This document shows, piece after piece, positions 1-60,169 of a DNA stretch of 64,000 nucleotides (within the stretch, counting starts at the first letter, position 1; every line of letters begins with the position of its first letter). The notes beneath the pieces are model-generated. The model had not been told where the DNA came from, did not search any database, and saw nothing but the letters and a program-made list of their open reading frames with translations. Source of the DNA: Bacteroidota bacterium (GTDB taxonomy: Bacteria > Bacteroidota > Bacteroidia > Bacteroidales > GCA-2711565); NCBI GenBank assembly GCA_018816945.1, contig JAHIVC010000030.1, positions 13,053 through 77,052 of the forward strand. Reading direction: 5' to 3'. Both the position numbers and the translations under genes were made by a program.

Positions 1-591
1 ATAAGTCGGGGTCCCGTCCTTGTCATCTACAATAAATAATTCTTTTCTGCCATTCTTTAATTGCTCCATGATTTTTTGAATGAATTTTTTGTCTTTTGTT
101 GGTCCTGCACCCATCATCCAACCTGCTCGACAAACCAAATAGCGTTTTGCATTTTCAACTACAAATCGTTCACCCATATATTTAGATCTAGCATAAACAC
201 CTAATGGATTAGGTTGATCCCAATCATCATACAATGCCTTCTTACCATCAAAAATACCTGCTGAAGAGATGTAAAGCAATGGAATATTTAATTTATTTGC
301 AATGTTTACAGCAGTTTCTACCGATATAGTATTCGTCGCATAGGTGTCATCTTCATTCTGCTCACAGAATTCCAGGTCTGTGTAGGCTCCTAAATGAAAA
401 AGATAGTCGGGTTTAAATTCGATTACTTGTTTCATGTATTCATCTGAATCCCGAAAATCCAGAAAATTTAACCATACTGAATTTACATCTTTATCTGTGC
501 ATTTCAAATCATATTCGTTATTATATTCCCTATAAAAAGCTTCTCCAAGCATTCCGCCACATCCTGTAATAAATATTTTTTTCTTCACCAT
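1..591 (-). CDS. RmlD-like NAD(P)-dependent sugar-nucleotide reductase/epimerase, N-terminal 197 codons (gene continues past window start)
   Basis: Own translation from ATG at 591 (absent from ORF track because there is no stop in the window): MVKKKIFITGCGGMLGEAF...YARSKYMGE...VDDKDGTPTY. Rossmann GxxGxxG and YxxxK motifs; frame open to base 1. The ATG shares 1 nt with the TAA of the upstream GT2 gene. Confidence 0.75.
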   Translation of the reverse strand, partial: MVKKKIFITGCGGMLGEAFYREYNNEYDLKCTDKDVNSVWLNFLDFRDSDEYMKQVIEFKPDYLFHLGAYTDLEFCEQNEDDTYATNTISVETAVNIANKLNIPLLYISSAGIFDGKKALYDDWDQPNPLGVYARSKYMGERFVVENAKRYLVCRAGWMMGAGPTKDKKFIQKIMEQLKNGRKELFIVDDKDGTPTY

Positions 592-1604
592 TAGTATTTA
601 TAGATTAGATTTTTAAAATTCTGAAATGAAAAAAGATTCATTAATAATTGTATATTGAATATTTTTGAGTTGAAAAAAATTAAGATTCTTTTTTTGAGAG
701 GAATATTATTTTTATGAAAGCACACAATTATCCAGTATATTAAAATTACTTTACGAAGGCTATTTTCAGAAAGACTTTTTTCCCTCCTGTTAATCATTAG
801 AAGCTTTAGGTACCATTTTTCTATGGCGTGAATATCAAACAAGCTAATATTTTTCGTAATGGGGAGTAAATTATGAATGCTTTTTTCTTCTTCGCTCAAT
901 TCAATTGAAAATGCCTGCTCTACTATCTTATGTCTTATTTTTTTAAATATTTCATTTTGAATATTTTCATTCAAATGACTAACATTACTGTTATGCCATC
1001 GAATTAAGAGTAAAGCATTAGGCAAATTTGCCAATTTGGCTTTTGTTGAAATTTTAAACCACAGATAATAATCTTCTGCAGGATAATAAGACAAGTCATA
1101 TTTCATACTATTATCTTCTAAAAGCAAACTCCTCCTAATCATGACAGATGAATGAATGAAAGGATTTCGAATAATCATATTTGCCCTTATATCCTGATCA
1201 TTTAATGGCATAGAAGTATGCCAATGTTTCTTGCCGAAAAATATTGCATTTGTACCACAAATTCCGACATCTAAATTGTTTTCCATATACCGAACCTGCA
1301 ACATCAATCTATCAGGCAGTGATATGTCATCATGATCCTGTCTTGCGATGTATTCTCCTTTTGAATGTGTAATTAATTGATTGAGAGAATGAACATACCC
1401 TTGGTTAATTTTATTTTTAAAAACTTTTATACGGCCATCTTTGTAGCTTGAAATAATTTTATGGGATTTATCATTACTACAATCATCGATAATTAAAAAT
1501 TCAAAATCAATAAATTTTTGATTTAAAATACTGTCCAGGGTCTTACAAATAAACTTTTCAGCGTTGTAAACAGACATTATAACAGACACTTTGGGATTAC
1601 TCAT
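591..1604 (-). CDS. family 2 (GT-A fold) glycosyltransferase
   Basis: VSVIMSVYNAEKFI, IIDDCSNDKS and RQDHDDIS (DxD) motifs. ATGA overlap with the upstream gene at 1601-1604. Confidence 0.85.
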   Translation of the reverse strand: MSNPKVSVIMSVYNAEKFICKTLDSILNQKFIDFEFLIIDDCSNDKSHKIISSYKDGRIKVFKNKINQGYVHSLNQLITHSKGEYIARQDHDDISLPDRLMLQVRYMENNLDVGICGTNAIFFGKKHWHTSMPLNDQDIRANMIIRNPFIHSSVMIRRSLLLEDNSMKYDLSYYPAEDYYLWFKISTKAKLANLPNALLLIRWHNSNVSHLNENIQNEIFKKIRHKIVEQAFSIELSEEEKSIHNLLPITKNISLFDIHAIEKWYLKLLMINRREKSLSENSLRKVILIYWIIVCFHKNNIPLKKRILIFFNSKIFNIQLLMNLFSFQNFKNLIYKY

Positions 1605-2326
1605 ATACTATTTTTTGTAATCATTAAATCGAGTAATTCAAGGTCACTCCTTTTAATTTGTAAAAGAATGAACTTATTATGCAGATTTTGATGGGGAGAA
1701 AATAACTTTGCATTTTCCAACAGGTATTGTTGAGAATTTTGAAATGGTTTTTCCAAAAACTTGCTTGACAATGGAACTTTATCGCAAAGGGATTTGTAGG
1801 AATTTTTTAAAAATTCTTTCTGACCGGATCTAAGGTGACCTCTATTATAATAAATTGCAATGAATAACATATGGATAATATCATAGCCCCAATACTCTGC
1901 TTCGGATTTATGGAAATGCTCCCAATCAATTAAATAAATAACTCCTCTATTAATTATTATGTTACTTATAACCAAATCCCCATGAATGGCAATTCTACCT
2001 TCTTCCATCTTCCATAAATTCTTGTAAAGGTCAATAACACTTTCAAAAATTCCTTCATTTCCTTTGATGCCACTTTCTGATTTTTTATTCCATCCATTAT
2101 AATACGGAATTTTTATTTTGCAATAATAATCATTGTCAAAAGAAATGTTATTAACCCACCCATTTCTAGAATAATACCATTCATACCCATTCAATTCATT
2201 CTTTATGAAAGTGTTCCCAATTTCAGATACCGCAACCTTTAAATAGTATTTAATGGATGTGTCAAAGCATCTGAAAATAGCGATACCATTGTTATGATGA
2301 TTAACATTTACTAATTCGTAATTCAT
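1601..2326 (-). CDS. APH/choline-kinase-fold phosphotransferase (LicA-like small-molecule or sugar kinase)
   Basis: IAIHGDLVISNIIINRGVIYLIDWEHF matches the HxDxxxxN catalytic loop plus the IDWE metal-binding motif of this kinase fold. Confidence 0.6.
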   Translation of the reverse strand: MNYELVNVNHHNNGIAIFRCFDTSIKYYLKVAVSEIGNTFIKNELNGYEWYYSRNGWVNNISFDNDYYCKIKIPYYNGWNKKSESGIKGNEGIFESVIDLYKNLWKMEEGRIAIHGDLVISNIIINRGVIYLIDWEHFHKSEAEYWGYDIIHMLFIAIYYNRGHLRSGQKEFLKNSYKSLCDKVPLSSKFLEKPFQNSQQYLLENAKLFSPHQNLHNKFILLQIKRSDLELLDLMITKNSI

Positions 2327-2399
2327 GCTTGTGATTTTATTGGACTTAACACAGTACTAACAATAAATGTGAAACCAATTATTAAAGATCTCTGAATCT

Positions 2400-3455
2400 T
2401 TAACTATTACTGTTTTTTTTATAGGCAATTATGATAAATGCGGGTGCCAATGAGAAGATTTTTAATTTTTTAAATATTATAAAATCCATTATTTTTATTA
2501 TTTTAAAAACAATTTTTGCCCATAAGTCAGTTCTCTTTTTCCAATAAAAAACTGTTTTAAAGTGGTCAAAATATTTTTTTTCAGCCGGAATAATTTTAAG
2601 AGGGAAATGGTAATCAGGGAAAGCGACAGAAAACTTGTATCGATCAAACCCCGCCTCACTCAACAATTTTTTTAATTCTTTAATTGAATATATATAATTG
2701 ACATATGGCCGACCGTACCAAATATTTGAAATAATATTCGCAAAAAATCTTGGCAAAATAGTAGTAAAATAAAGATTTGAATGCGGATCTCTTTTCCATA
2801 AAAAATGTTTATAATCGTATCTGTTTTCTATAGCCAAGTAAAGCCTGCCATTACTTTTTAGGGTTTTATTCACATTTTTTAAAAATGCCAATTGCTCTAA
2901 TCGGGGATTTGTTTCAGGAGTAACAAATTTTATTCTTTTCTTTTTGAAATGATCTTTTAGGTCGACTGCTTCCTGTTGAGGTATCCATTCCAAGACCCCG
3001 TTGACAATTGAAAAATCAAATACTCCTTCAATATTCAATCCATTTCTCAAGTTTGCATTCAACAAATAACAATTATTTATTTTTTCCTCTTCTATTCTTT
3101 TCTTCAAAAACTTTAATGAATCAATTGTTTGATCAACACCCAGCATCGCCTTACATTGACGAGCTGCAACCAGCATTAGATTTCCCCACATACACCCATA
3201 ATCAATTCCTATTTCATTTTTTTGTATCTCAAGAAGCTGCAACCCAACAGCTCTTGTCTGATCAAATATCATATTATAATACTGAGAAAAATTCTCTTCT
3301 ATTGCTTCTTTTGTTGATTTAGTCTCTAAACTTAAGAATAGAGTTTCTTGATCTTTTTGAGAAAAATTACTCCAATACCCTTCAGTAGATGATTGGTGAT
3401 AAATTGCATTATAATAGTCGAATTTTGACATCAACATATCTCTTAATTCATTCAT
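2400..3455 (-). CDS. class I SAM-dependent methyltransferase
   Basis: GIDYGCMWGN (motif I-like) and FDFSIVNGVLEWI (motif II/III-like); hydrophobic C-terminus. Confidence 0.55.
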   Translation of the reverse strand: MNELRDMLMSKFDYYNAIYHQSSTEGYWSNFSQKDQETLFLSLETKSTKEAIEENFSQYYNMIFDQTRAVGLQLLEIQKNEIGIDYGCMWGNLMLVAARQCKAMLGVDQTIDSLKFLKKRIEEEKINNCYLLNANLRNGLNIEGVFDFSIVNGVLEWIPQQEAVDLKDHFKKKRIKFVTPETNPRLEQLAFLKNVNKTLKSNGRLYLAIENRYDYKHFLWKRDPHSNLYFTTILPRFFANIISNIWYGRPYVNYIYSIKELKKLLSEAGFDRYKFSVAFPDYHFPLKIIPAEKKYFDHFKTVFYWKKRTDLWAKIVFKIIKIMDFIIFKKLKIFSLAPAFIIIAYKKNSNS

Positions 3456-3466
3456 ATTTAAATGAT

Positions 3467-4648
3467 TTATGATATTAAATCGTGGAAATTATATGCCATT
3501 TTTAGAGCATTGAATTTTTGGATATGTTCTTTTGCTTTATATGCCATTTTAGAATATTTTGTGGGATTATTATAGAAATCAATAATGGCCTCACAAATCA
3601 TATCTGGAGATTCTGGTGAAATTATTCTGGCGATGTCAGAATTATAATACTCAGGAATAGCTCCAACATTAGTAATAATAGTAGGAATCCCTATACTCAT
3701 CGCTTCAGCAATTGTATAGTTAAACGCTTCAAAATCTTTTGTCAACATTAATAAGACATCAAAGCAATTTATTATTTCATCCGATTTGTTTTCAATAAAT
3801 CCAGTAAAAATAACCCGATCTTGCAAATCATATTTTTTAACCAGAGACTTAAGTCTAAAAATCTCTTTCTTATTACCTCCGCCAACAATTAAGACTTTAA
3901 ATTTTATCTTTATTTCTTTCGGTAAACGGGATAGGGCAATGATTATATCTTCCTGCCCTTTGTACCTTTCGACTCTGCTAATAATTCCAAGAATAAACTC
4001 ATCCTTTGTTATGTTATATCTTTCTCTTAAATTAATATCAGCAAGCCCTAAACCGTTTATTAAATTAATGCCGTTGGGTATTACACGTATCGGATTTATC
4101 ATGGTATTGAAATGTCTTCTTTCCACCAGGGTGGTTCTTGTAGCCAAAGAAACAGTTACCAAATCAGTGGCACATTTTTGTAATCCAATAATTTTAATAG
4201 AGTCCAACAATATAAATATTGGAATTCTCGGCATCGCTGCATGATGGATCAGCAAAACACGTTTAGGGATTTTTAAAAAAGTTGAGCTAAAAATAATTGT
4301 AGTACAGCTCCTGGCACCAGGAAATCCACCATTATCAGATATTAAGACATCGAATTCCCCATGAATTTTTAATAAAAAAACCCCTCTTATAAACTCATAG
4401 AAAAAAATGAGCCAAGCAAAAAAGAAAGAAAATAAATAAAATCTGTCCCAATTAAATCGTTTATATTGAACCAACTTTAAGTTTTGAATTCTTTTTAAAT
4501 ACACAATGTTTTTTTTAACCCCATCATTATCATGATTGTAAAAAAGAATAAATTGGTCCTCTTTATCTGGCCAGTTTTGGAGTAAACATAATAGATGAGT
4601 GTCAACACCGCCATGTTCTTTAGAATCTAAATATATTGCAATTTTCAT
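3467..4648 (-). CDS. GT-B fold glycosyltransferase (family 4-like)
   Basis: C-terminal EAFNYTIAEAMSIGIPTIITNVGAIPEY (E-x7-E type motif); one N-proximal hydrophobic segment. Confidence 0.8.
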   Translation of the reverse strand: MKIAIYLDSKEHGGVDTHLLCLLQNWPDKEDQFILFYNHDNDGVKKNIVYLKRIQNLKLVQYKRFNWDRFYLFSFFFAWLIFFYEFIRGVFLLKIHGEFDVLISDNGGFPGARSCTTIIFSSTFLKIPKRVLLIHHAAMPRIPIFILLDSIKIIGLQKCATDLVTVSLATRTTLVERRHFNTMINPIRVIPNGINLINGLGLADINLRERYNITKDEFILGIISRVERYKGQEDIIIALSRLPKEIKIKFKVLIVGGGNKKEIFRLKSLVKKYDLQDRVIFTGFIENKSDEIINCFDVLLMLTKDFEAFNYTIAEAMSIGIPTIITNVGAIPEYYNSDIARIISPESPDMICEAIIDFYNNPTKYSKMAYKAKEHIQKFNALKMAYNFHDLIS

Positions 4649-4652
4649 AAGA

Positions 4653-5696
4653 TTATTTTCTAAATATTGTATTAAATAACAAAAACTTAAATCGTTTTTT
4701 ATATCTCGTAGTTATGGAGTTATTATCAGAAAACCATCCAAAAAGACGACTTTTAATTTGAAAGAAGTTTCCTGTTAAAGAAATTAAATAACCCAATTTC
4801 TCAAAAAAAACATTGTTAAAAAGAAAAACTCTTATAGAACCTAACTTCGTGTATTTATAAATACAATCCTTTATTGTTTTTTTTTCTTCTGAGCTCAAAT
4901 TCGAATCCGGATGCAATGCAAATTCCAAAGCCAAATCAAATTGTCCATAGGCGCACAAAATCAATACAATTTTCCAAATCTTTGTATGCTTAATTTGATC
5001 TTCTAATTTTTTATTATAAAAATGATCAATAGAAATGATAAAAAATGTGTCTGCGAACATTATTTGACCTCGGGTTGAGTTGGATATAGGTAAGTTTTTC
5101 TGTTTTGCATAATAATTACATACATCTATTAATACAAAGCCATTTTCATACATTAGGTTATAAATTTCCGGAAAAAAATGTTCCCCCTTATACATCTCAT
5201 TGTATTCAACTTCAATCTCAAAAAACAAACTATCAGAAATAAATTCATTGCCCATTCCTATTAATACCTGAAAAGCCAATCCTTGAACATCAATTTTTAC
5301 AATGTCAGGTAAAATATTATTGGTAACTAATATTTTCTTTAAGGGAATCGTTTGAATTTTTATTTGCTTTTCGACTTCCCACCTCTCAGATAAATAGAAT
5401 TTTGAAAGAAACTCATTGTTGGGACAAAGGATTGAAGAACATCCTGGCTCATTTGTTAAATATAAGCTAGACTCACCTTCAATATCAGATATGGCAATTG
5501 GGAAGTAGGTAATATTTTTAGTAGTGTTTTTATTTAATAAGGCACACTCTTCTTTATCTGGCTCAAAACCATAATAGATTATAAATTCGCTATCAACTCC
5601 ATCCCAAGGTGGGTTTACACCCCATCTAGCACCAATATCAATCAGCGTGATTTTTTCACTTTTAGGGAATGGCAATGATTTTAGTAATTTTTTCAT
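4653..5696 (-). CDS. FkbM-family methyltransferase
   Basis: LIDIGARWG and IVKIDVQGLAFQVL resemble the FkbM family signature (IDIGAxxG ... KIDvEG). Confidence 0.65.
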   Translation of the reverse strand: MKKLLKSLPFPKSEKITLIDIGARWGVNPPWDGVDSEFIIYYGFEPDKEECALLNKNTTKNITYFPIAISDIEGESSLYLTNEPGCSSILCPNNEFLSKFYLSERWEVEKQIKIQTIPLKKILVTNNILPDIVKIDVQGLAFQVLIGMGNEFISDSLFFEIEVEYNEMYKGEHFFPEIYNLMYENGFVLIDVCNYYAKQKNLPISNSTRGQIMFADTFFIISIDHFYNKKLEDQIKHTKIWKIVLILCAYGQFDLALEFALHPDSNLSSEEKKTIKDCIYKYTKLGSIRVFLFNNVFFEKLGYLISLTGNFFQIKSRLFGWFSDNNSITTRYKKRFKFLLFNTIFRK

Positions 5697-5749: not shown

Positions 5750-7591
5750 TTATTTTTTTGCTTGTTCAATAAGGAAATCTACAATTCGCTCACCTGATTT
5801 ACCGTCTATTTGACCAATATACTTATTGCCATATTTTTCTAAAAAATTGGTTAAAAAACCTGTTAATTCAGAGGCGTCATTAATATTGCGAAGAACTATA
5901 TCCAATAGCTCTTCACCTTTGCTAAGCCTTATAACCTCGTCCCAGTTTAATCCAGAATATGGTAAACATAATGAACCCTCTATTAAATTTGGTTCAAAGA
6001 ATATTGTTGGAATTCCGGCTGCCTGGGCTTCAAAAAAACAAGATGAGACATTACAAACCAACAAATCCATAGTACCAATAATTTCAGAGAAAGGGATTGA
6101 AAAGAAGCTATTGAATTTTAGGCTATTTTCTTTAACTCCCACAAATTCAAATATGTATTTGAAATATTCAGCGGATTCATTGTGAGGTCTAAAATAAACT
6201 TCAATACCTTTCTTAGCTAATTGTGGGAATAAGGGGATGATTTCTGCTAAATATTTTTCGCGAAATGCAAAACGATCCATGCGGGCAAAATGGTTATCTT
6301 CAAATGAGAGAAACAATACCCTATGAATTTTTTTAATCTCCTTTTTGGAAGTTTTGAAATAAGGATCGATACAAGGAGAACCAGTAACGCAATGAATGTC
6401 ATTTTTATTGTAGGGATCATATGATCCTGCTAAAAAACGGATATCATAATCAGGTATTTGTGCTATTGAGCTACTCGCACGAAAACCCTGAATTCCATGA
6501 TCAACAAAAGCATATAAAATATCATTTCTTTTGCAGATATCCTTTCTAAGTTGTGCATTTTCACCTTCAGACTCAATGTCTATCATTATTTTAATTTTAT
6601 TTTTAATTAATGCCCATTCTAATTTATTACGTGATAACAGCAAATTAGGAATCTCATTACTTGTTAGTTGTATAGCAACACGCTGATAGAAAGGAGAATA
6701 GTCAATACCATGATAGCAATATGAATTGTTTGATTTGTTTTTAATTCTTGCACTTAAGGCAGTTAAAAATTGATCATCAAATTTAGAAAGAGGAGTCTTG
6801 GTCGTTTCAAGATTTATAAAAGACGTGTGAAAATGATTAATCAATTTTTTTACATACAGATTGGGTATAAATAGGTGAGCCTTTTGATTTTCAATTAGTG
6901 ATATTAGGTTTGGATAATTATTAATAAAGATTCTAGTTTTGCCACGATGTCGTAAAATATTTATTTTATTGATGGTATATTCTAAAAAGGTTATCAAAAT
7001 TTTTCGAATTAATTGTTGGATTATTCTTTTTACAGAAGTTTTTGATTTTATTTGTAATTTTTGATTTGCAATTATCCCAGAGGGAATAACCTGATTGCAA
7101 GGAATAAAGGTTAAGGTAATATCTAGCTGTTTGCAAACCAATTCTGCAAGTTCAACTTTGCTAAAGATTCGTTCCACATCATTACCATTCTTGTAAAAAG
7201 TGTTTTCATTATCTGAAAAGTCACAAAATACATGTTCCGGTTTGAATTGAGATACCGCCCAGCGTATAACCTCTCCGTATTTAACCAAGATATTTAATAA
7301 ATAACTTTTATTAATCAAGATACGTGATATCTCCCCAAAAGAAAAACCATTATACTGTGAAATATCACCTTCGGGTTTATTATACCAATAAGAAGTAAAC
7401 TCATCTGTAATTTCTTGTAGATTTGAGAAATCTTTACCTGAAAATAGATCATCAATGAAAAAGACTTCTTTACATTGCTCGCTCTTACTCAAAGATAAGT
7501 ATGGGAGATAATTAAAACAAATAACAACATCATTGTTGTGTAGTAGCTTAGCTATAACACTTTTATCGTTCTCTATTAGAAAAACATTCAT
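5750..7591 (-). CDS. hypothetical 613-aa protein with GT-B-like C-terminal lobe (possible polymerising glycosyl- or phospho-transferase)
   Basis: Long intact ORF in operon register. C-terminal LLVCNVSSCFFEAQAAGIPTIFFEP resembles the nucleotide-sugar-binding lobe of TagF/KpsC-type enzymes. No firm family recognised. Confidence 0.4.
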   Translation of the reverse strand: MNVFLIENDKSVIAKLLHNNDVVICFNYLPYLSLSKSEQCKEVFFIDDLFSGKDFSNLQEITDEFTSYWYNKPEGDISQYNGFSFGEISRILINKSYLLNILVKYGEVIRWAVSQFKPEHVFCDFSDNENTFYKNGNDVERIFSKVELAELVCKQLDITLTFIPCNQVIPSGIIANQKLQIKSKTSVKRIIQQLIRKILITFLEYTINKINILRHRGKTRIFINNYPNLISLIENQKAHLFIPNLYVKKLINHFHTSFINLETTKTPLSKFDDQFLTALSARIKNKSNNSYCYHGIDYSPFYQRVAIQLTSNEIPNLLLSRNKLEWALIKNKIKIMIDIESEGENAQLRKDICKRNDILYAFVDHGIQGFRASSSIAQIPDYDIRFLAGSYDPYNKNDIHCVTGSPCIDPYFKTSKKEIKKIHRVLFLSFEDNHFARMDRFAFREKYLAEIIPLFPQLAKKGIEVYFRPHNESAEYFKYIFEFVGVKENSLKFNSFFSIPFSEIIGTMDLLVCNVSSCFFEAQAAGIPTIFFEPNLIEGSLCLPYSGLNWDEVIRLSKGEELLDIVLRNINDASELTGFLTNFLEKYGNKYIGQIDGKSGERIVDFLIEQAKK

Positions 7592-7680: not shown

Positions 7681-9036
7681 TCATTTTATTTGTTCACTAC
7701 CTTCTGGTAGTATCTTAATCCGAATTAATTCCTCAATGAAATCTAATAAAATATAATCATCCCATTTTCTAGAAATGAATTGTACACCGAAAGGCATGTT
7801 TTCCGGACAACGAAATTTTGGAGCCGAAACTGCAGGAATGTGTGCCATTGTCCATATAAGTGATGGATCTGAAAGCTCTAAACTACCCCTTTCAGGTGCT
7901 GAGCTCGAAGTTGAAAGAGAAATTCCAACATCAAAAGGGGTTAGTAATTGATCTACCTCAGCAATTATTCTCTGTTGTTGGGAAAGAGCATGTTTGAAAG
8001 TGTCTAACGAAATCTCCTTTCCTCTCTCAATCATTTCATACATAATAGGCGAAATCTCAGTGGCTCCTTGATTAATCTCATTTTGAAAATAATATGATAA
8101 TGATTTGGAATAAATTATTTCATGTATAAAGTGTGTTTCTGATAGACTGGATGGCCAGTTAATCTCTGTTACATTTATGTCGTGTTTGCTATCAAGTTGG
8201 TTGACAAAGTTTTGTAGCGATAATTTAGCATAATCTTTTGCTGAATCCCAAGTGTGAGTTTTAATTAATGCAACTTCCCAATGTTCCTTTCTCTTGTTTT
8301 CAGCGAGTTTTTTATCAATATTTTGAAATACAAACGGATAATTAGGACCTTTGACTCGTAATTGATTATATATAGGCCGAATGCTCATGCCATTAGCAGA
8401 CAGAAAGCCTACTGTATCTAGGGTATCCGTAGTTTTTAGAATTCCCGTTCTTGGTATTGTGCCAAAAGAGGGTTTAAACCCCCAGATTCCACAAAAACTT
8501 GCAGGTCGCATAATCGATCCTGCTGTTTGGGTACCCAGCGCAAAAGGTACCATTCCGCAAGCAACTGCTGCAGCTGATCCACTTGATGATGTTCCGGGTG
8601 TTTTTGAATTATTATGTGGATTAAGTGTCTGGTTTAATTGATGAACCGCAAACTCAGCAGTCACAGTTTTACCAGCCACGATACCTCCACTATTACAAAT
8701 CGAATCAACAACTCTGGCATTGTTGCCAGGAGTAAATCCTTTCCATAAAACCGAACCCATCTGTGTTGGATACTCACGGGTATTGAAAATATCTTTAACT
8801 CCAAATGGAATTCCTTCAAGTTCGAGAGCATGACCACGACGTTTATAAATTGAAGCGGCAATTTCACTGGCTTGAATAAGCCTGTCGGGGTCGAATACCT
8901 CCCATGCTAAGCATTTTTTCTCATGGATAGAGAAAGCATCAATTGTTTCATTTATCAACTCAGTATGAGAGAGACTATGATCCTTGATTTTATCAACGAG
9001 CTCTGAAATTGAGTAATTAAGGAAAAGTGAATTCAT
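7681..9036 (-). CDS. amidase-signature (GatA-like) amidohydrolase
   Basis: GIPFGVKDIF plus the Gly/Ser-rich signature GTSSSGSAAAVACGMVPFALGTQTAGSIMRPASFCG. ATGA overlap (9033-9036) with the upstream amidotransferase. Confidence 0.85.
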   Translation of the reverse strand: MNSLFLNYSISELVDKIKDHSLSHTELINETIDAFSIHEKKCLAWEVFDPDRLIQASEIAASIYKRRGHALELEGIPFGVKDIFNTREYPTQMGSVLWKGFTPGNNARVVDSICNSGGIVAGKTVTAEFAVHQLNQTLNPHNNSKTPGTSSSGSAAAVACGMVPFALGTQTAGSIMRPASFCGIWGFKPSFGTIPRTGILKTTDTLDTVGFLSANGMSIRPIYNQLRVKGPNYPFVFQNIDKKLAENKRKEHWEVALIKTHTWDSAKDYAKLSLQNFVNQLDSKHDINVTEINWPSSLSETHFIHEIIYSKSLSYYFQNEINQGATEISPIMYEMIERGKEISLDTFKHALSQQQRIIAEVDQLLTPFDVGISLSTSSSAPERGSLELSDPSLIWTMAHIPAVSAPKFRCPENMPFGVQFISRKWDDYILLDFIEELIRIKILPEGSEQIK

Positions 9037-10250: not shown

Positions 10251-10279
10251 AAAATAATTATTCTATTAGTTTGATAAAA

Positions 10280-10855: not shown

Positions 10856-10858
10856 ATA

Positions 10859-12136: not shown

Positions 12137-12163
12137 ATTAAAACTATTTTATTTAATAGACTA

Positions 12164-14021: not shown

Positions 14022-14026
14022 GTTTC

Positions 14027-14761: not shown

Positions 14762-14783
14762 TTTCTAAAATATTCGAATTAGA

Positions 14784-47581: not shown

Positions 47582-47582
47582 A

Positions 47583-49588: not shown

Positions 49589-49617
49589 ATGATTTAATTT
49601 TTTATTATTTCTTATAT

Positions 49618-50343: not shown

Positions 50344-50353
50344 AAAATGCATG

Positions 50354-50899
50354 TTAACATCTAGTTGTAATAATATATGCAACAGCTGATTGTAATGAAT
50401 TTACTATTGCATGGAATTGTAAGGGGCGTGTTTCCTTATAATGTCGATCAATAAAGATAGTTTTACAACCAGCTTTATTACCAGCTTCAATATCGCTTGA
50501 ACGGTCTCCAATCATAAAACTTTTTTTAAGGTCGATGCTATGTTTTAACGAAGCCTTGTTCAACATACCTGGATTTGGTTTTCGACAATCGCATCCTTCA
50601 TCCTGGCGATGAGTACACATAAAAACATCATCAATCATTGTCTTTTCATAAAGTTTAAGATGCATGGCTTCAACTTCTTCAAGAGGCACTAATCCATTAC
50701 CAATATCTGGTTGATTAGTAACCACAATAACTTTAAATCCAAATTGTTTTAATAAAGCTACTGAACGCTGAGCATTTGGCATGAGTATAAAACTTTTTAG
50801 TTTGCGTGGAGCGTATGGCTTGCCATTTCTGACAAATGTTCTGCATATTACGCCATCCCGATCCAAAAAAACAGCAGGACATAGTTCTTTTTTTACCAC
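50354..50899 (-). CDS. gmhB: D,D-heptose 1,7-bisphosphate phosphatase (HAD, GmhB type)
   Basis: FLDRDGVI (HAD motif I), VVTNQ, zinc motif CTHRQDEGCDCRKPNPGML, GDRSSD. There is no in-frame ATG before motif I. Candidate starts are GTG 50899 (chosen, 7-nt overlap with gmhA) or TTG 50947 (track). Confidence 0.75.
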   Translation of the reverse strand: MVKKELCPAVFLDRDGVICRTFVRNGKPYAPRKLKSFILMPNAQRSVALLKQFGFKVIVVTNQPDIGNGLVPLEEVEAMHLKLYEKTMIDDVFMCTHRQDEGCDCRKPNPGMLNKASLKHSIDLKKSFMIGDRSSDIEAGNKAGCKTIFIDRHYKETRPLQFHAIVNSLQSAVAYIITTRC

Positions 50900-51489
50900 T
50901 TTGTTGCCTGGATTTGCAGTGCGGGATGAGAAACTAGACAATGCCAAACTACAGCCTGAAATGCTTCGCTATGTGGAGTAATAAGTTTATCGTCAACTAC
51001 AGGGACAAGCACAACAGCGTCTCCTTTGATCTGTGTATATCCGCCATCTCGACCGACTATACCGAAAACTTTCGCTTTTCTTTCAACAGCAAGGTCAATA
51101 GCCTGAACTAGATTGACGCTAACTTGCTTTTCGATGTTTCCCCCACCTACAGACATTATAAATAAAGCATCTTTTGAGTCAAGTTTACTTATCTTAAGCC
51201 AAGCGGCCAATGCTCCATCCCATCCTTCGTCATTAATTCGTGCTGTAAGTTCTGAAACATTATCTGTTGGTGCATAGGACTCTATCCCACATAGTTTGCG
51301 AAAATCATTTACTGCATGACTACAATTTCCTGCACTTCCTCCGACCCCCAAAAAGAATAACCGGCCACCATTTTCTCGCAATCTGACAAGTGCGTTTGTC
51401 AAAATCTCAATCTGTTGCTTGTCGATCAACTTAGCAACTCGTTTAACTTGTTCGAAATATTGATTTACGTGCTCGTTACGTATATTCAT
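50893..51489 (-). CDS. gmhA: SIS-domain phosphoheptose isomerase (GmhA type)
   Basis: FFLGVGGSAGNCSHAVNDFRK, MSVGGGN; 198 aa. Confidence 0.8.
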   Translation of the reverse strand: MNIRNEHVNQYFEQVKRVAKLIDKQQIEILTNALVRLRENGGRLFFLGVGGSAGNCSHAVNDFRKLCGIESYAPTDNVSELTARINDEGWDGALAAWLKISKLDSKDALFIMSVGGGNIEKQVSVNLVQAIDLAVERKAKVFGIVGRDGGYTQIKGDAVVLVPVVDDKLITPHSEAFQAVVWHCLVSHPALQIQATKW

Positions 51490-51563: not shown

Positions 51564-53315
51564 TTATTTAGTAGTTGAAAGCATTATCTTTGGAGAACCA
51601 GACCCCACTATTTTTCCTTCTTCCAGCCTGAATATTCGGTCGCAGTGTTCAACAGTAGAAAGTCGATGGGCTACAATCAGAATGGTTTTAGTTCCCTGAA
51701 GATTAGTAACTGTTTTCATCACACTACGCTCTGTTGATATATCAAGAGAACTTGTGGCTTCGTCAAGTACCAAAACAGCCGGATCATGGTAAAGAGCCCT
51801 TGCAATACCGATGCGTTGCCGTTGTCCACCCGATAACCTTACACCACGCTCACCTACGAGAGTTTCAAGTCCCAAAGGCAAACTCTCAACAAAAGACCCA
51901 AGTTGGGCTGCCATAATGGCTTTGTTAACAGCACTATCATCAATCTGATCGTTTGATAATCCAAAAGCTACATTTCGCCGCAGAGTATCATCGGTAAGAT
52001 AAATATGCTGGGGCACATAGCCGATCTGGTTCTGCCAGGCACGCAAATTTTGTTGGATATTCTCACCGTCGAATAATACCTGACCCGCATTTGGCGTCAA
52101 CAACCCCAGCAATACATCCACCATGGTGCTTTTCCCCGAACCACTTGAACCAATAAAACCCACAGACTCACCATTCCTGATGGTAAGCGTAAGATTATTG
52201 AGTGTTGGCTTTGGAGTGTTTGGATATGTGTAGCTGATGTCCCTCAACATGATCTCGTTCGAGAATACCTTTACATTTGCCCCAGTTTTGGCATTGGGGT
52301 CGATTGCATCGAGCTTGAATTCGTCAAACAGAATATTAATAACCGGCAATGCATATCGTAGCGACTGTATTGAAGTCAACATTTTGTTGATAGATGGTAA
52401 TAGCCGAAAAGCAGAAGCAGTAAATAGTCCCAGTTTAGGTATAATGCTGGATATGTTTTGACCCTGAATTATCATTATAATTACAAGAGCAGCTAAAGCG
52501 ATTATGACTATAAATTCTAGCCATAATCGCGGAAGTGCTAATACAGTTTGATGTAACCGACCTGCTTCTGCTGTCTTTGTGTTGTTTAAATTGTATTGTT
52601 TCAAAAAATCGCTTTCACGGCCTAGTATTTTGACATCTTTAACTCCTCCCAGACCCTCTTGAAGATTTTGGATACGAAATCCTTCATACAACTGACGTAT
52701 CTCTCCCCATCGTATTATTTTGGAGCGTGTAATTCGGTAGAATATCAAGGTTGCTATACCTAATATAAGCATCACTATAATTGTTCCAATAGGTTCGAAC
52801 ATCAAAAGAAGACTGACTATCCCAATCGTAACAAGACCGTCAGTTAATAGGCTTATTGCATTTGATAAAGCACCGGAGAATTGGTTTACCTCGGAAACAG
52901 AATTTCGAATCAACTGTGCGGAGTTTCTCGATAAATGGAAAATGTATGGCTGTCGGAGATATATAGTGAAGAGACGTTGTGAAATTTGAACCTGCACCCC
53001 CATTGTAAAATGTGTTTGTTGCCATATCAAAAAGGAAATAAATATCATTTTGATTAGGTTCATAACAACCAGTGTGAGCATTGCTCCAATAATTAATTGT
53101 ATTTGCGTAGGATTGCCCAGAGCATTGATTACAGGTTGTAATCTAGGGTAACTCAAGACAAGATTCTGCTCTGACATCAGCCCAATTGCAGGGATCACCA
53201 ATCCAATTCCCATGACCTCTAATCCCATACCAATAAACATGAGAAGCAGTAATATCATAGCTTTCTTTCGCTCTGAAGGTGTAAGTAAGTAGTATATTTT
53301 TTTGGATATCGTCAT
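51564..53315 (-). CDS. fused ABC exporter (6-TM permease + ATPase, MsbA-like)
   Basis: Hydrophobic N-terminal half; Walker A GSSGSGKST, signature LSGGQRQRIGIARAL, Walker B VLVLDEATS. Confidence 0.9.
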   Translation of the reverse strand: MTISKKIYYLLTPSERKKAMILLLLMFIGMGLEVMGIGLVIPAIGLMSEQNLVLSYPRLQPVINALGNPTQIQLIIGAMLTLVVMNLIKMIFISFLIWQQTHFTMGVQVQISQRLFTIYLRQPYIFHLSRNSAQLIRNSVSEVNQFSGALSNAISLLTDGLVTIGIVSLLLMFEPIGTIIVMLILGIATLIFYRITRSKIIRWGEIRQLYEGFRIQNLQEGLGGVKDVKILGRESDFLKQYNLNNTKTAEAGRLHQTVLALPRLWLEFIVIIALAALVIIMIIQGQNISSIIPKLGLFTASAFRLLPSINKMLTSIQSLRYALPVINILFDEFKLDAIDPNAKTGANVKVFSNEIMLRDISYTYPNTPKPTLNNLTLTIRNGESVGFIGSSGSGKSTMVDVLLGLLTPNAGQVLFDGENIQQNLRAWQNQIGYVPQHIYLTDDTLRRNVAFGLSNDQIDDSAVNKAIMAAQLGSFVESLPLGLETLVGERGVRLSGGQRQRIGIARALYHDPAVLVLDEATSSLDISTERSVMKTVTNLQGTKTILIVAHRLSTVEHCDRIFRLEEGKIVGSGSPKIMLSTTK

Positions 53316-53628
53316 TTAAATAATACTTGAGATAAATTATTTAAAGTTGGTCAATAAATCATATAGGAATTGAATCTGAAAATCTCTAACTTAATCGTAA
53401 TATGTCGAAAATAATTCGTGAAAATTTCCCGCAATAATTCAGTTATGCCTAACTCAGCAAGGAAGTTGTTGCTGGAGATAATGCAGTTTATGGGGCAAAA
53501 GTCCGATTTCAGATTAAATGGTAAATTACATTGCATTTATCAATTAAAGATTTATGTATCTATTTCGTGTTGGTTTTCTTAGTTGAAAAGCATGACATCA
53601 CATAGATAGAGGAGCTTTTCATTTTTCA

Positions 53629-54232
53629 CTACTCCCTATTCATTCTCTTTACCCACTCATGTATTGATGTAATTTCCAAACTTTCATTCCAAAAAAAAAG
53701 CTCCGTCATCTCAGTTTGCAGGCTGTTGTGTCCATCTCTTCGTTTTCTGTTACAGGGAATCACTCTTACCATGTACTCCGGGCCAAGGCCAAAGATTTTT
53801 AATGCATTGTCTCCACTGGGTTTTCGATCGCGGGCATTGCTGCTCCAATGGAGCTCAATGGTATTATCGGCTAAAAATTCAATATCCAGATTTTCAAAAC
53901 CACCCAGATCACCCGTTATGGGTTTAAACAGAGCCAGATCAGGCTGTCCGTTTTTTCATCAAAGGCATGTACATTGAGTTTACAAAATAAATTCTGTCCG
54001 GTCATTTGTTGCCGCCTAGCTTCAGGGTTCCAGCAGGGGCGGATCAATGAATTCAGGTTTATGCTTATAAATTCGATAGCGGCCTTAAATTTAGATCGTT
54101 GCTTTTGTTGTTCCGGGGTTTTTGGATTTTTCAACTTCAGAGGGCGGCTTCTTACACAGTCCTTTTTGAAACGGCGATAATATATCGAGGGGCCCAGGAT
54201 CCCACTAAAATGTCCGTTTTTACTCGTGCCAT
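53629..54232 (-). pseudogene. frameshifted ~201-codon gene (two -1 frame breaks at A-runs), possibly a Bacteroidota DUF6266-like protein
   Basis: Own three-frame reading. Segment 1 from ATG 54232: MARV. Segment 2: KNGHFSGILGPLDIYYRRFKKDCVRSRPLKLKNPKTPEQQKQRSKFKAAIEF...NVHAFDE. Segment 3: KNGQPDLALFKPITGDLGGFENLDIEF...EWVKRMNRE, stop at 53629-53631. Breaks lie at 54217-54221 (A5) and 53951-53956 (A6). Family name is from memory only. Confidence 0.45.
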
Positions 54233-54350
54233 ATTTTTGTTTAGGAATCAGAAATTTCTAACACTTTTTATGCTTCCTCGTCGGGCAGGTTTTACTTTTC
54301 TACTCGAACCTACCACCTCAACATTCCGGTCGTAGCAAATCCTAGTAAAA

Positions 54351-54745
54351 ACTTGAACAGACCTTGAATAAAACCTGAACAACTCCGGTTTTATTCAGAC
54401 TTGCTGCAGTGTTGATCTGAACTTGTATTGGAGTTGGTTAATAGACGATTTATTTTGAAGTAATTAATGTTTAAATTCCATCCTCGTTGGCAGACCAAAT
54501 TCCAAACAAATTCCAATTCTGAATTTTCAAATTTCACCCTTCGACTCACTTCGACTCACTTCGACTTCGCTCAGTGCGAGTAGCTCAGTGCGAGTAGCTC
54601 AGCGCGTGCTCAGTGGAACCAGGCTCAGTGTGACGAGTCCACAGATTTCACGGATTTTCACGAATTGTTTGCTGTTCGCGCTCAAAGGTTCAGAGGTTCA
54701 AAGGTTCAAAAGTTCAGAGGTTCAAAGGTTCAAAAGTTCAGAGGA
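54351..54745. repeat. patchwork of different short tandem word repeats downstream of wzz
   Basis: TTGAAC/CTGAAC words (54353-54380, 54417-54422). AAATTCCA x3 (54473-54515). CTTCGACTCA x2.8 (54539-54566). GCTCAGTG-type words x5 (54569-54637). ATTT(T)CACG x2 (~54645-54663). 8-mers A(G/A)GTTCA(A/G) x7 with a 24-nt super-period (54686-54741). Confidence 0.9.
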
Positions 54746-54766
54746 TTTATCTTTTAACTTTCGCCT

Positions 54767-55915
54767 TTATACTTTCAACTTTTCACTTCCCTCTTCCATC
54801 CAACGTTTCTTGATATTGACTAAAAAATGCTTTCCAAACACCCATCCAATACCCACTACACCACCAAAGAATATCCAAGTTATCAGGATTTTCGTTCTTT
54901 TTGGCTTAAAACTTTCTCTCGGGACACTAATAGGTTGGATGATTATAAATACAGGCGTTTCTCCTTTTACCTGTATTTGTGCACTTTCGAGTTGTTTTGC
55001 TAATTCAGTAAACACCGCAAAAATAATATGATATTCACTTTGCAGGCGCTCCAGTTCGGTTTTATCAAGCTCGGTAACGATATTTTTATTTTTATCCCGA
55101 AAACGTGCTAATTTCTCCTGAATTTGTTTGAATTCCTGTTCCTTTTCCTGATATCTCTCCATGACAAACTCAAGCTGAGTCTGTGCTTTTTTTATTTTAA
55201 ACTCAGTAATTTTTTCCTGTAACAGTTTCTGGGCATTTTGTCCTAATTGAGCTGCGGCTTTAGCCTCAGGCATAATTGCTATTAAAGTTATAACTCCCTG
55301 TTTTTGATCAATCTTCAAACTAATGGATGAGCTCAATAAATTGATTATTCTTCTTTCTTCAGCGGTTAATATCACGATACTTTTATCCTGTTCAATTGTA
55401 GCTTCAACTGAAGTAGATTTCCTTTTTAAAGCACTTAATATTGTGCCTGGAAGTCCAATGGTGAACTTTTTTACAAAATTTAACACATTGAACTTAGTAT
55501 ATTGTGGGTCGGTGTAAAAGTTGTAAATACTAATCTGGTTGCTATATCCATCAAAATTTACCTCAACTTTCATTAATTCTTTCAGGAAAGGGATGCTTTT
55601 TACAATTTCGGGATAAACTGTAGGACTTAATTCAGCTCCGGTATTCATATCCATATTAAAACCTGCCATTGCAGCGAGGGATGAAAGCCCTCCCAAATTA
55701 TTATTTCCTGAATTTATCTGAGGAACCATGATGCTGCTTGCGGAATACTGTTTTGGCGTGAAAATGGCAATAAATAATCCAATGATTGTAAAAATGATGA
55801 TCGTTATTATGATCATTCTTCGTTTATTCCAAATGATTTTGGCCAGCGCAATGAGGTCGATTTCGTCGCTGTGGGCGTCGAGTGACTGTGTGGTTGTATT
55901 GGGAGTTTCAGTCAT
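54767..55915 (-). CDS. Wzz-family polysaccharide chain-length determinant protein
   Basis: N-terminal EIDLIALAKIIWNKRRMIIITIIIFTIIGLFIAIFTPKQY (Wzz motif plus TM1), coiled-coil middle, C-terminal TM (ILITWIFFGGVVGIGWVFG). Confidence 0.8.
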   Translation of the reverse strand: MTETPNTTTQSLDAHSDEIDLIALAKIIWNKRRMIIITIIIFTIIGLFIAIFTPKQYSASSIMVPQINSGNNNLGGLSSLAAMAGFNMDMNTGAELSPTVYPEIVKSIPFLKELMKVEVNFDGYSNQISIYNFYTDPQYTKFNVLNFVKKFTIGLPGTILSALKRKSTSVEATIEQDKSIVILTAEERRIINLLSSSISLKIDQKQGVITLIAIMPEAKAAAQLGQNAQKLLQEKITEFKIKKAQTQLEFVMERYQEKEQEFKQIQEKLARFRDKNKNIVTELDKTELERLQSEYHIIFAVFTELAKQLESAQIQVKGETPVFIIIQPISVPRESFKPKRTKILITWIFFGGVVGIGWVFGKHFLVNIKKRWMEEGSEKLKV

Positions 55916-56198: not shown

Positions 56199-56555
56199 TT
56201 AGGTTTTATTTAAAGATTTTATAAGAGCAGTTAACATTCTAATGATACTTTTTAGTTCGTTGTTAGTATCTTCAATGTTTTCTATATAATTTAATCTTTT
56301 TGATATTTCTATCTGAGTTTCAATTTCAGATGCAGAACCCAAAGAATGATATAAAAATTGAATAAACTCTTTGGTATTTCTACGTGCAGCTCCTTCAGAT
56401 ATATTTGAGGGTATAGAAACAGCTGCTCTCCTTAATTGGCTTGTAAGTCCAAATAGTTCCTCTTTCGGAAATTTATCAGTTAATTTGTAAATATGGAATA
56501 CAAAATTCATTGATTTTTGGTATACTTCTAAATCTTTATGGGTTTTTATTTCCAT
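56199..56555 (-). CDS. four-helix-bundle protein (23S rRNA intervening-sequence protein / Avd-like family)
   Basis: 118 aa. LEVYQKSMNFVFHIYKLTDKFPKEELFGLTSQLRRAAVSIPSNISEGAARRNTKEFIQFLYHSLGSASEIETQIEI is the typical pattern of this family. Confidence 0.8.
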   Translation of the reverse strand: MEIKTHKDLEVYQKSMNFVFHIYKLTDKFPKEELFGLTSQLRRAAVSIPSNISEGAARRNTKEFIQFLYHSLGSASEIETQIEISKRLNYIENIEDTNNELKSIIRMLTALIKSLNKT

Positions 56556-59443: not shown

Positions 59444-59650
59444 CTGTATAATTGTTTAATTAATTATAAAATATCAATTCCTAGGTAATAATTCTTATAG
59501 ATTAGCTTTATCTGTAAATCTTTATGGTCAGCTATAAATTGGAAACTTATTTTGGTACAAATAATTTGAATATTCTTTTGATGGCTAAAATGAAAGATAC
59601 AGCTTTGCTACGTATATTTTTGAAACCCATTATTTGATACCGGAACATAA

Positions 59651-60169
59651 TTACACGGGTAATTTAGATTTCTTTGTTACTGATGCTGCATGTTCAAGAA
59701 TCAATGAATAACCTATATCCTTAATCCGGATGATAATTTTGTTTTTGCCATTATTGTCTTTTACGACTTCTCCTTCATATCCCTTTAAAGGCCCTGATTC
59801 TATTATTATCATCTCACCTTTCAAAAACCTTTCGCCGCTGTAATAATGAGGTGCCTTAAATTCTACCATTTTTTTCATGGCGTCGATCTGCCATTCAGGA
59901 ATCGCGACTGCTTTACCTTCAAATGTTACATAACGCACAGCACCAGTTATGTTAACGATGTCATAATACTCTTTTTCACTGATATTCACAAACACATAGG
60001 ATCGAATCATTGGGACTTCTACTTTTTTCTTTCGATCACTCCATTGCTTTATCTTTGTTTCAAGTGGTAAATAAGCATTAAACCCTCTTTTAATAATTTC
60101 GGCATAAACTTTCTTTTCCTGCATTGATTTGGTATAAAGAGCGTACCAGTGATAGGAAAGTTGTTTCAT
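59651..60169 (-). CDS. UpxY-family (NusG-like) transcription antiterminator
   Basis: WYALYTKSMQEKKVYAEI (NGN domain) and KOW-like GEMIIIESGPLKGYEGEVV. Start set at ATG 60169 (MKQLSYHWY); the track start 60256 is a TTG. Confidence 0.85.
   Translation of the reverse strand: MKQLSYHWYALYTKSMQEKKVYAEIIKRGFNAYLPLETKIKQWSDRKKKVEVPMIRSYVFVNISEKEYYDIVNITGAVRYVTFEGKAVAIPEWQIDAMKKMVEFKAPHYYSGERFLKGEMIIIESGPLKGYEGEVVKDNNGKNKIIIRIKDIGYSLILEHAASVTKKSKLPV

Follow-up and report, generated by a model that had tools for sequence, protein, structure and literature searches.

The window analysed here, 64,000 nucleotides that correspond to bases 13053-77052 of the 81,780-bp contig C76 in a Bacteroidota genome of 4.14 Mb (35.7% GC, 108 contigs), shows the head and middle of a complex cell-surface polysaccharide cluster, of the capsule, exopolysaccharide (EPS) or O-antigen-like kind, that is headed by a UpxY-family antiterminator and continues beyond the window. 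Taken whole, from UpxY to a priming phosphoglycosyl transferase, the locus occupies contig positions 4111-73308 (69,198 bp, 65 genes) and is a Wzy-type polysaccharide system of ordinary kind, exceptional in its size and in the complexity of its precursor pathways. The single non-canonical feature left is a PglK-type ATP-binding cassette (ABC) protein where a Wzx flippase would be expected, and we think it probable that the pathway is a Wzy-type one in which this ABC protein replaces Wzx. Window coordinates are contig coordinates minus 13052, with positions beyond base 1 of the window given as negative numbers.

An initial annotation, made on the window alone, had described an atypical locus, poor in transferases and lacking both Wzy and an initiating transferase, whose product would be exported by ABC, Wza-like and Wzz-like proteins alone. 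However, when the next 13 kb were examined by open reading frame (ORF) listing, Pfam, NCBIfam and a hydropathy scan, the minus-strand run was found to leave the window, as that annotation had supposed, and to go on past base 1 to contig position 4111, carrying a Wzy_C protein (window -3241..-1811), a Bac_transf phosphoglycosyl transferase (-8941..-8387) and further glycosyltransferases of families GT4 and GT26. These genes lie 1.8-8.9 kb past base 1 on the same strand, so that the locus is neither transferase-poor nor Wzy-less nor primer-less, and the apparent lack of Wzy, of an initiating transferase and of more glycosyltransferases is a window-edge artefact. The description of an atypical, Wzy-less locus holds if only bases 1-60169 are counted, but even within the window three further transferases were identified, and we give it almost no credence. 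The glycan genes end at contig position 4111, because the genes that come next encode an AAA_14 ATPase, a second "23S rRNA IVP"-type protein and a HipA kinase with its helix-turn-helix (HTH) partner.

In its account of gene arrangement the initial annotation fared better. Every non-nested ORF between window positions 60256 and 1 lies on the minus strand, and 58 genes are counted when both the UpxY homologue (59651-60256) and the gene spanning base 1 are included; the ATG at 60169 that had been taken as the upxY start is in frame with that ORF. Spacing is close throughout: 45 of the 57 junctions in the window are 60 nt or shorter or overlap (a manual count from the gap list), 47 of the 64 junctions in the whole locus are no longer than 60 nt, and the four ATGA overlaps noted at 1601-1604, 9033-9036, 30199-30202 and 42432-42435 can all be read on the reverse complement. 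Along the minus strand a small gene and UpxY are followed by Wza-like and Wzz-like genes, the ABC gene, about 45 kb of precursor and tailoring genes, and finally a low-GC assembly tail of transferases, Wzy_C protein and priming enzyme that lies mostly beyond base 1. Pfam and NCBIfam assignments bear out the presence of at least six precursor modules, and the locus is indeed far larger than the UpxY loci of its own genus, which span 8-40 kb.

Six transferases of the locus can be assigned at the level of family, namely the priming enzyme, the GT26 protein, two GT4 proteins, a GT2 protein and a member of TIGR04372. The GT2 (591-1604) and GT4 (3467-4648) genes that had been regarded as the only unambiguous glycosyltransferases in the window are both present, but the TIGR04372 protein is a third. 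Two in-window orphans of 280 and 613 amino acids are candidate transferases at the level of fold, judging by models built from alignments of their homologues. For the 280-residue model the only significant fold matches in the PDB were the Campylobacter jejuni sialyltransferases Cst-II and Cst-I (E 3e-5 to 1e-3, TM-score 0.38-0.54), followed by the MptE/DUF115 fold, and PF01973 is carried by 11 of 107 homologues of the protein; the 613-residue model had 205 matches at E <= 1e-3, with TarL/TagF, MurG, GtfB and UDP-GlcNAc 2-epimerases among them. Counting also a 303-residue protein (13110-14021) with a weak NCBIfam match to "surface carbohydrate biosynthesis", there are eight to nine transferases in all, about what six or more precursor modules need. 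The Wzy_C protein itself, with 40 bits, exceeds the cut-off of 31.7; it has an 84-residue loop, and no sequence relative of it was found in the PDB.

The initial annotation had also named the fused ABC protein as the sole inner-membrane exporter, accompanied by Wzz-like and Wza-like proteins, and in this it was correct. The protein has the architecture of a half-transporter of the exporter fold, a transmembrane domain followed by a nucleotide-binding domain (TMD-NBD), and the best of its 188 NCBIfam matches is to PglK (NF050066), with 347 bits against 306 for MsbA. Likewise, PglK ranks first among the bacterial half-transporters of the PDB, matched over the full length with about 300 bits (entries 5c73 and 6hrc) against 208 for MsbA. 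Within the window a scan for transmembrane (TM) segments found no polytopic protein besides the ABC protein, as the initial annotation had stated; over the run as a whole the Wzy_C protein is the only other one, and of the supposed absences among the membrane proteins that of Wzx survives. A six-frame search of the genome with PF01943 gave eight matches, all on other contigs and none on C76, no remnant of a Wzx gene was found in the large gaps beyond base 1, and the 65 genes include no pair of ABC-2 type permease and separate ATPase, the fused exporter being the only ABC protein. The three other Wzy_C genes of the genome (on contigs C69, C7 and C49) each lie 3-5 kb from a Wzx match, so that the lack of Wzx is a peculiarity of this locus, not a general trait of the organism.

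Homologues of the ABC protein are numerous and conserved across phyla, with 59-62% identity in records of Methylophilaceae, Nitrospiraceae and Sulfuricellaceae, and those inspected stand at the head of long polysaccharide loci that are rich in nonulosonic-acid genes and have glycosyltransferases at the far end. In an even set of 401 Bacteroidota genomes, searched at a threshold of E <= 1e-120, homologues were found in 34, none from the same order or class, the best sharing 47-56% identity. Ten contexts were viewed over 20 kb to either side, and in seven the ABC gene belongs to a long cluster on one strand that encodes one polytopic non-Wzx protein, and no Wzx lies within 20 kb; one of the seven (in genome G073) also has Wzz-like and Wza-like genes. 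In another context (G212) a Wzx gene lies 18 kb away on the opposite strand. A search of the genome contigs with the ABC protein returned only distant matches to the ATPase domain, and the locus of a distant genome (G041), which is collinear with part of the one described here, came from the protein database.

Whether a run of this length is transcribed from one promoter is harder to judge, and a single primary transcript for the locus seems to us possible, though we lean slightly against it. The UpxY antiterminator at the head, which is the only UpxY in the genome that scores above the family cut-off, and the tight gene spacing favour one unit, as does a candidate promoter of the Bacteroidota type at 61021-61051, ahead of the conserved first gene. 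Of the minus-strand matches to TTTG-N15-21-TANNTTTG in the window, no other is intergenic; with nine matches in total against 5.1 expected the count is not significant alone, and it is the position of this match that is suggestive. Between 44 and 60 kb no convincing intrinsic terminator was found on the minus strand, and scans for sigma-70 promoters and terminators, of limited use in Bacteroidota, found no more sites than in shuffled sequence. On the other side, gaps of 1451, 743, 646 and twice 283 nt weigh against an uninterrupted operon, as does a terminator-like hairpin, which is followed first by a repeated element of about 150 nt and then by the genes for the epimerase and the priming enzyme.

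The simplest reading of the origin of the locus is that it was acquired horizontally in blocks and is a mosaic. At E <= 1e-60 the ABC protein is absent from all 12 other genomes of the genus, and in the same genomes the Wza-like protein has no relative closer than 31-32% identity (two weak matches at E <= 1e-30). In the nearest relative, G002, whose transfer-messenger RNA (tmRNA) is 98% identical and whose flanking DNA is 92-93% identical, synteny with C76 exists only to the right of window position ~61189, while leftward G002 continues as sequence that is found here on contig C35. In comparison with G002 the entire locus therefore counts as inserted DNA; the insertion is at least 74 kb long and starts some 0.7 kb away from the tmRNA gene, on the side of its 3' end. 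The G041 contig is collinear with the window from 55.9 to 32 kb (Wzz, ABC, heptose, dehydrogenase block, thiamine diphosphate (ThDP) block, TIGR04372, NeuB, NeuC). The shared proteins are 44-93% identical, for most genes above the 65% found between the two genomes for an NtrC-like housekeeping regulator, which is 87-97% identical within the genus. A collinear block with up to 93% protein identity in so distant a genome points to horizontal acquisition. A metagenome contig from JGI shares a different block, 5750-14761, from a cytidylyltransferase (14027-14761) down to the 613-residue GT-B protein, at 71-91% identity, and past this block has a different transferase tail that holds insertion sequence (IS) elements. 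GC content changes in steps, being 28-33% in the assembly tail (28-31% in its in-window part) and 34-46% in the middle, against a mean of 36.8 +/- 2.7% for the ORFs of the genome, in agreement with a mosaic origin.

The head of the locus, however, is typical of the genus. Exactly one UpxY is found in 7 of 13 genomes of the genus, at other chromosomal sites in the relatives, and the one-strand runs that follow it extend for about 24 kb in G003, 38 kb in G004, 40 kb in G007 and 8 kb in G002. The loci of G004 and G007 open with homologues of the 187-residue first gene (66-75% identity), in the equivalent position before UpxY (60-73%), and they also contain an IVP gene. G002 keeps its single UpxY (73% identical) in a region syntenic to contig C48, where the corresponding site of the present genome (C48:205968-206203) is only about 235 bp long and has no UpxY, so that UpxY appears either to have been lost at the C48 site or to have been relocated to the large locus.

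Taken together with what is known of PglK-like proteins, the gene content suggests the following route. The 184-residue phosphoglycosyl transferase would prime undecaprenyl phosphate, probably with a 6-deoxy-N-acetylhexosamine made by the adjacent dehydratase and epimerase, and a complex repeat unit would be built by eight or so transferases (GT26, two GT4, GT2, TIGR04372, the GT-B orphan and the Cst-II-like protein). The lipid-linked unit would then be flipped by the ABC protein instead of Wzx, polymerised by the Wzy_C protein under the control of Wzz, and exported through the Wza-like protein, with UpxY keeping RNA polymerase elongating along the long unit. Helicobacter pylori Wzk and C. jejuni PglK flip undecaprenyl diphosphate-linked glycans of diverse structure and length and are interchangeable (PMC2841628). 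We infer the flippase and polymerase roles, the single operon and the identities of the sugars, and several points weigh against the route as drawn. The role of the ABC protein as a putative flippase is assigned by exclusion and by family resemblance, and its PglK score of 347 bits is far below the equivalog cut-off of 1000. At least five Wzx genes elsewhere in the genome could act in trans. The polytopic partners of the ABC protein in other Bacteroidota loci have at best a weak match to Wzy_C, and Wzy_C (PF04932) is also the domain of WaaL and PglL ligases, so that polymerase and ligase are not separable by domain.

This last point leaves room for an arrangement of the Helicobacter type, in which the glycan would be finished on the cytoplasmic side of the membrane and flipped whole by the ABC protein, as by Wzk, while the Wzy_C protein would be a ligase of the WaaL/PglL type acting onto lipid A-core or proteins, and Wzz and Wza would serve another step or another polymer. 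Both PglK and Wzk accept long glycans (PMC2841628), and the ABC gene adjoins the export genes and is distant from the Wzy_C gene. Nevertheless, we consider this arrangement unlikely, because the Wzy_C gene has glycosyltransferase genes around it in the type-specific tail of low GC content, the usual place of polymerases, because the chain-length regulator and the outer-membrane export channel are encoded in the UpxY-led run itself, and because eight or so different transferases suit a repeat unit better than a processive backbone. Still less probable is that a Wzx from elsewhere in the genome flips the unit and that the ABC protein has a different substrate for export, for instance a lipid anchor or some other glycoconjugate. 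Wzx proteins can act in trans, and the eight PF01943 matches on other contigs would supply candidates, but Wzx proteins generally prefer their cognate unit, three of the others sit 3-5 kb from a Wzy_C gene of their own, and members of this ABC family are found consistently inside glycan loci, several of them without Wzx within 20 kb.

It is also possible, though less likely than not, that the run consists of two or more juxtaposed units, maybe for more than one glycan, with a genus-typical head (small gene, UpxY, IVP gene), an imported precursor block led by the ABC gene, and a tail in which the final genes are transcribed from a promoter of their own. The uneven identity to G041, from 44 to 93%, the stepwise composition of middle and tail, the large gaps, terminator-like site and repeated element ahead of the epimerase and priming-enzyme pair, the presence of two separate nonulosonate pathways, and the fact that relatives have blocks and not the whole locus in common would all fit such a history. 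The run, however, has one each of priming enzyme, Wzy_C protein, polysaccharide co-polymerase (PCP), outer-membrane polysaccharide export (OPX) protein and ABC protein, its genes are strictly co-oriented, the stretch from 44 to 60 kb yielded no strong intrinsic terminator, and a mosaic origin is compatible with present function as a single unit. The Wzy-type pathway with a PglK-type ABC flippase remains the reading that we prefer.

Compared with known systems, the locus resembles the UpxY-led capsular polysaccharide operons of Bacteroides fragilis and Bacteroides thetaiotaomicron in that a NusG paralogue, UpxY, heads a long one-strand polysaccharide run with type-specific transferases and, here, a probable polymerase at the far end. 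Bacteroides UpxY loci have roughly 11-30 genes, whereas this one has 65 in 69 kb (8-40 kb in congeners), lacks Wzx, has a conserved small gene before UpxY, and is headed by the single UpxY of the genome. Furthermore, the Wza-like gene follows UpxY directly, no ORF being found in the 207-nt gap between them and no UpxZ-like gene being seen there, although no search with an UpxZ model was made. With Wzx/Wzy pathways that use PCP and OPX proteins (Wza-Wzc of Escherichia coli group 1, Myxococcus EPS) it has in common a priming enzyme, several glycosyltransferases, a Wzy_C protein and Wzz- and Wza-type proteins, but it differs from them in having a fused ABC half-transporter instead of Wzx and a PCP without a kinase domain. 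ABC-dependent capsule and O-antigen systems (KpsMT-KpsE-KpsD, Wzm/Wzt) likewise combine an ABC exporter with PCP-like and OPX-like proteins; here, in contrast, the exporter is of the fused MsbA/PglK type, a Wzy_C protein is present, and no genes of the KpsC/KpsS type were found.

The likeness to C. jejuni PglK and H. pylori Wzk lies in a TMD-NBD half-transporter of about 560-590 residues within a glycan locus that has a small PglC-type priming enzyme, but the score is far below the PglK equivalog cut-off, and the Wzz-like, Wza-like and probable polymerase proteins stand in place of the PglB oligosaccharyltransferase, or the WaaL ligase only, of those systems (PMC2841628). No description of a PglK-like ABC protein paired with a Wzy polymerase was found in the open-access literature, an absence that is no proof of novelty. 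Finally, PseB, NeuC, NeuB-type synthases, CMP-transferases, a WbuX-type protein and a Cst-II/Maf-like transferase recall the nonulosonic-acid loci for flagellin glycosylation and capsule in Campylobacter and for the O-glycan of Tannerella forsythia, unlike which two such pathways are combined here with heptose, acyl-carrier and ThDP modules in one UpxY-led unit with polymer export genes. The features of the locus are listed in Table 1.

Table 1. Features of the UpxY-led locus in their order along the minus strand (window coordinates unless contig is stated).
Feature	Position	Strand	Basis or remark
Candidate Bacteroidota-type promoter (TTTG ... TAAGTTTG)	61021..61051	-	just upstream of first gene
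First gene, 187 aa, no family	60460..61023	-	directly upstream of UpxY
UpxY-family NusG-like antiterminator	59651..60256	-	NF033644 145 bits (cut-off 100); Pfam NusG
Wza-like outer-membrane polysaccharide export protein, 897 aa	56750..59443	-	Poly_export and several SLBB/SLBB_2 domains
Four-helix-bundle "23S rRNA IVP" gene	56199..56555	-	PF05635 133 bits; flanked by GTGACGG heptamer arrays
Wzz-like polysaccharide co-polymerase, 382 aa, 2 TM, no kinase domain	54767..55915	-	Wzz and GNVR domains
Non-coding interruption, 1451 nt, micro-repeat arrays and frameshifted gene remnant	53316..54766		no intact ORF; tandem word arrays
Fused ABC half-transporter, 583 aa, PglK-like, putative lipid-linked glycan flippase	51564..53315	-	ABC_membrane and ABC_tran
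Heptose module: GmhA-like, GmhB-like, transaldolase, two short-chain dehydrogenase/reductase (SDR) epimerase/dehydratases, HldE-like protein	46025..51489	-	Pfam, NCBIfam
Nucleotide-sugar dehydrogenase, GFO/IDH/MocA oxidoreductase, epimerase	42889..46015	-	TIGR03026 222 bits, above cut-off; Pfam
Amino-sugar tailoring block: NUDIX, two DegT aminotransferases, ThDP-dependent E1 alpha/beta pair, methyltransferase, RmlD-like reductase	36558..42875	-	Pfam, NCBIfam
Intergenic tandem repeat, 91-nt unit, about 2.4-3 copies	36275..36557 (283 nt)		TRF
TIGR04372-family glycosyltransferase, 400 aa, one N-terminal TM	35072..36274	-	235 bits (cut-off 45)
Nonulosonic-acid pathway A: NeuB-type synthase, epimerase, NeuC-type hydrolysing 2-epimerase, GFO oxidoreductase, CMP-transferase, SDR	29417..35034	-	NCBIfam, Pfam
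Acyl-group cassette: acyl carrier protein-like, SDR, MBL-fold hydrolase, KASIII, AMP-binding ligase, 345-aa orphan	24216..29329	-	Pfam; weak carrier-protein matches
Polysaccharide deacetylase, methyltransferase, CBS and sugar-1-phosphate nucleotidyltransferase	21178..24229	-	Pfam, NCBIfam
Candidate CMP-nonulosonate transferase, 280 aa, GT42/DUF115-like fold	20252..21094	-	AlphaFold model, pLDDT 96
Nonulosonic-acid pathway B, acetamidino chemistry: PseB, two cytidylyltransferases, class-III aminotransferase, NeuB/PseI-type synthase, DUF218, DegT (PseC-like), GNAT, GFO, two orphans, WbuX amidotransferase, amidase	7681..20242	-	NCBIfam, Pfam
Orphan, 613 aa, GT-B fold, candidate glycosyl- or polyol-phosphate transferase	5750..7591	-	model, pLDDT 82
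Low-GC tail, in-window part: FkbM methyltransferase, GT4, methyltransferase, kinase-like protein, GT2	591..5696	-	Pfam
RmlD-like reductase spanning base 1	1..591 and beyond	-	contig placement, ORFs, Pfam
Orphan, 258 aa	contig 11315-12091	-	ORF listing
Wzy_C protein, 476 aa, at least 9 TM segments	contig 9811-11241 (window -3241..-1811)	-	Pfam, TM scan
GT4	contig 8606-9790 (window -4446..-3262)	-	Pfam
WecG/TagA GT26	contig 7790-8518 (window -5262..-4534)	-	Pfam/NCBIfam
Polysacc_synt_2 dehydratase, CapD-like	contig 6368-7588 (window -6684..-5464)	-	Pfam
NAD-dependent epimerase	contig 4662-5624 (window -8390..-7428)	-	Pfam
Bac_transf phosphoglycosyl transferase, PglC-size, 184 aa, one TM	contig 4111-4665 (window -8941..-8387)	-	PF02397 168 bits

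The locus encodes the enzymes expected for nonulosonate synthesis of the pseudaminic, legionaminic or neuraminic type, with PseB and NeuC for the committed step, NeuB-type synthases and CMP-transferases. In pathway A, NeuC (TIGR03568) scores 372 bits, above its cut-off, NeuB (TIGR03569) 365 bits, just below 399.65, and the PseF-like protein 115 bits; in pathway B, PseB (TIGR03589, 504 bits) and WbuX (TIGR03573, 325 bits) are both above cut-off. The two NeuB-family synthases, with 300 and 365 bits, thus fall just below their equivalog cut-offs. Altogether the locus encodes three CTP_transf_3 cytidylyltransferases (one PseF-like), four DegT aminotransferases and several methyltransferases. The WbuX-type amidotransferase gene overlaps an amidase-signature gene by 4 nt (window 7681-10250, minus strand) and has no HisH/HisF-like partners alongside; this pair is 91% conserved in the JGI metagenome contig, whereas a Methylophilaceae locus has the classical HisF/HisH pair. 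The transaldolase gene is embedded in the heptose module and matches the staphylococcal-type family TIGR02134 with 342 bits, above cut-off, and the module also has HAD-IIIA/GmhB and rfaE domains I and II. The HldE-like bifunctional protein (46025-47581, minus strand) has its domains in reversed order, with the nucleotidyltransferase first and the PfkB kinase second. The amino-sugar block (36558..42875) is part of the collinearity with G041 (44-93% protein identity), and the Wza-like protein has weak NCBIfam matches to the EpsE and Wza families.

Three interruptions of the run, already recognised in the initial annotation, exist at 53316-54766, 55916-56749 and 36275-36557. The remnant in the 1451-nt gap has a weak similarity to DUF6266 (E 6e-4, below cut-off), and the equivalent junction in the collinear G041 locus measures 278 nt. 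The second interruption consists of the IVP gene and the gaps of 283 and 194 nt that surround it. Homologues of the IVP protein are found inside the UpxY loci of G002, G004 and G007 and in a Methylophilaceae locus, and the gene and its heptamer arrays accompany loci of this kind repeatedly and are no isolated insertion. The 91-nt tandem repeat is absent from the G041 locus, where the two flanking genes overlap. Beyond base 1, the structured element of about 150 nt (contig 5644-5795, window -7408..-7257) lies 20-170 nt upstream of the epimerase gene and recurs about eight times on other contigs (80-91% identity) and once in G002 (96%). Rfam gave no match for it, and no link was found between its copies and homologues of the genes downstream of it. 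The 212-nt gap between the priming enzyme and the AAA_14 ATPase carries short tandem repeats, and the genes that follow on the same strand (contig 397-3898) encode the AAA_14/DUF4143 ATPase, the second 23S-rRNA-IVP-type protein, and the HipA kinase with its HTH partner. One end of contig C75 (7056 bp) overlaps the start of C76 by 42 nt, and C75 encodes, on the same strand, a 647-residue membrane-anchored Polysacc_synt_2 protein of the WbpM/PglF-like kind and several predicted outer-membrane proteins. Judging by C75, there may be more envelope-glycan genes past the toxin-antitoxin genes.

At the other end, UpxY is the second gene of the locus, after the 187-residue gene, which had no Pfam or NCBIfam match above threshold. 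Upstream lies an inverted pair of 62 nt (61137-61198 and 61666-61727) that encloses 467 nt. It was considered as an invertible promoter, a reading that is not favoured here, the arms being copies of a dispersed hairpin element and the motif at 61021-61051 lying outside the pair. This element forms a perfect hairpin of 17 bp (CAGGGATGGCGTCCCGA ... TCGGGACGCCATCCCTG) and has only 4-5 copies in the genome, including C35:36932-36985 and one on C46. One copy marks precisely the right border of the DNA inserted in comparison with G002, and the C35 copy lies past the end of synteny with the left flank in G002. Between the locus and the tmRNA gene is a small ORF of about 68 codons (window 61335-61541, plus strand; 93% DNA identity in G002), followed by a strong hairpin terminator at 61593-61620. 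The tmRNA gene itself (61908-62275, minus strand; Rfam 156 bits, tag peptide GDNNYAIAA) has its 3' end facing the locus. In the congener G003, a 68-nt stretch from just downstream of the tmRNA gene of the present genome, with an adjacent 13-nt copy of the tmRNA 3' end, is found about 20 kb from the G003 tmRNA gene. The tmRNA site may be an insertion hot spot in the genus, but we do not regard the locus as a classical tmRNA integrative island, since neither a direct repeat of the tmRNA 3' end nor an integrase at the far end was found in the present genome; what the comparison shows is an insertion with respect to G002.

A 2025 review of Wzy proteins lists three routes of surface-polysaccharide assembly, Wzx/Wzy, ABC-transporter and synthase (PMC12004945), as textbooks do. 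A more speculative suggestion, less likely than not, is that the locus represents a fourth, hybrid route, in which a PglK-type ABC flippase feeds a Wzy/Wzz/Wza machine specialised for complex repeats rich in nonulosonic acids, moves between phyla as a module, and is present here in one UpxY-antiterminated operon of more than 69 kb. If true, such an operon would rank among the longest in bacteria, and the retention of Wzy, Wzz and Wza with a PglK-type ABC protein in exchange for Wzx would be a natural case of the flippase exchange that has so far been shown only by complementation (PMC2841628). For annotation, the lesson is that "missing" Wzy proteins, priming enzymes and transferases can stem from the edge of a window. 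For the biology of these bacteria, the locus shows to what size an antiterminator-led glycan unit may grow, here 65 genes, and that the building blocks of such units pass between lineages that are only distantly related.

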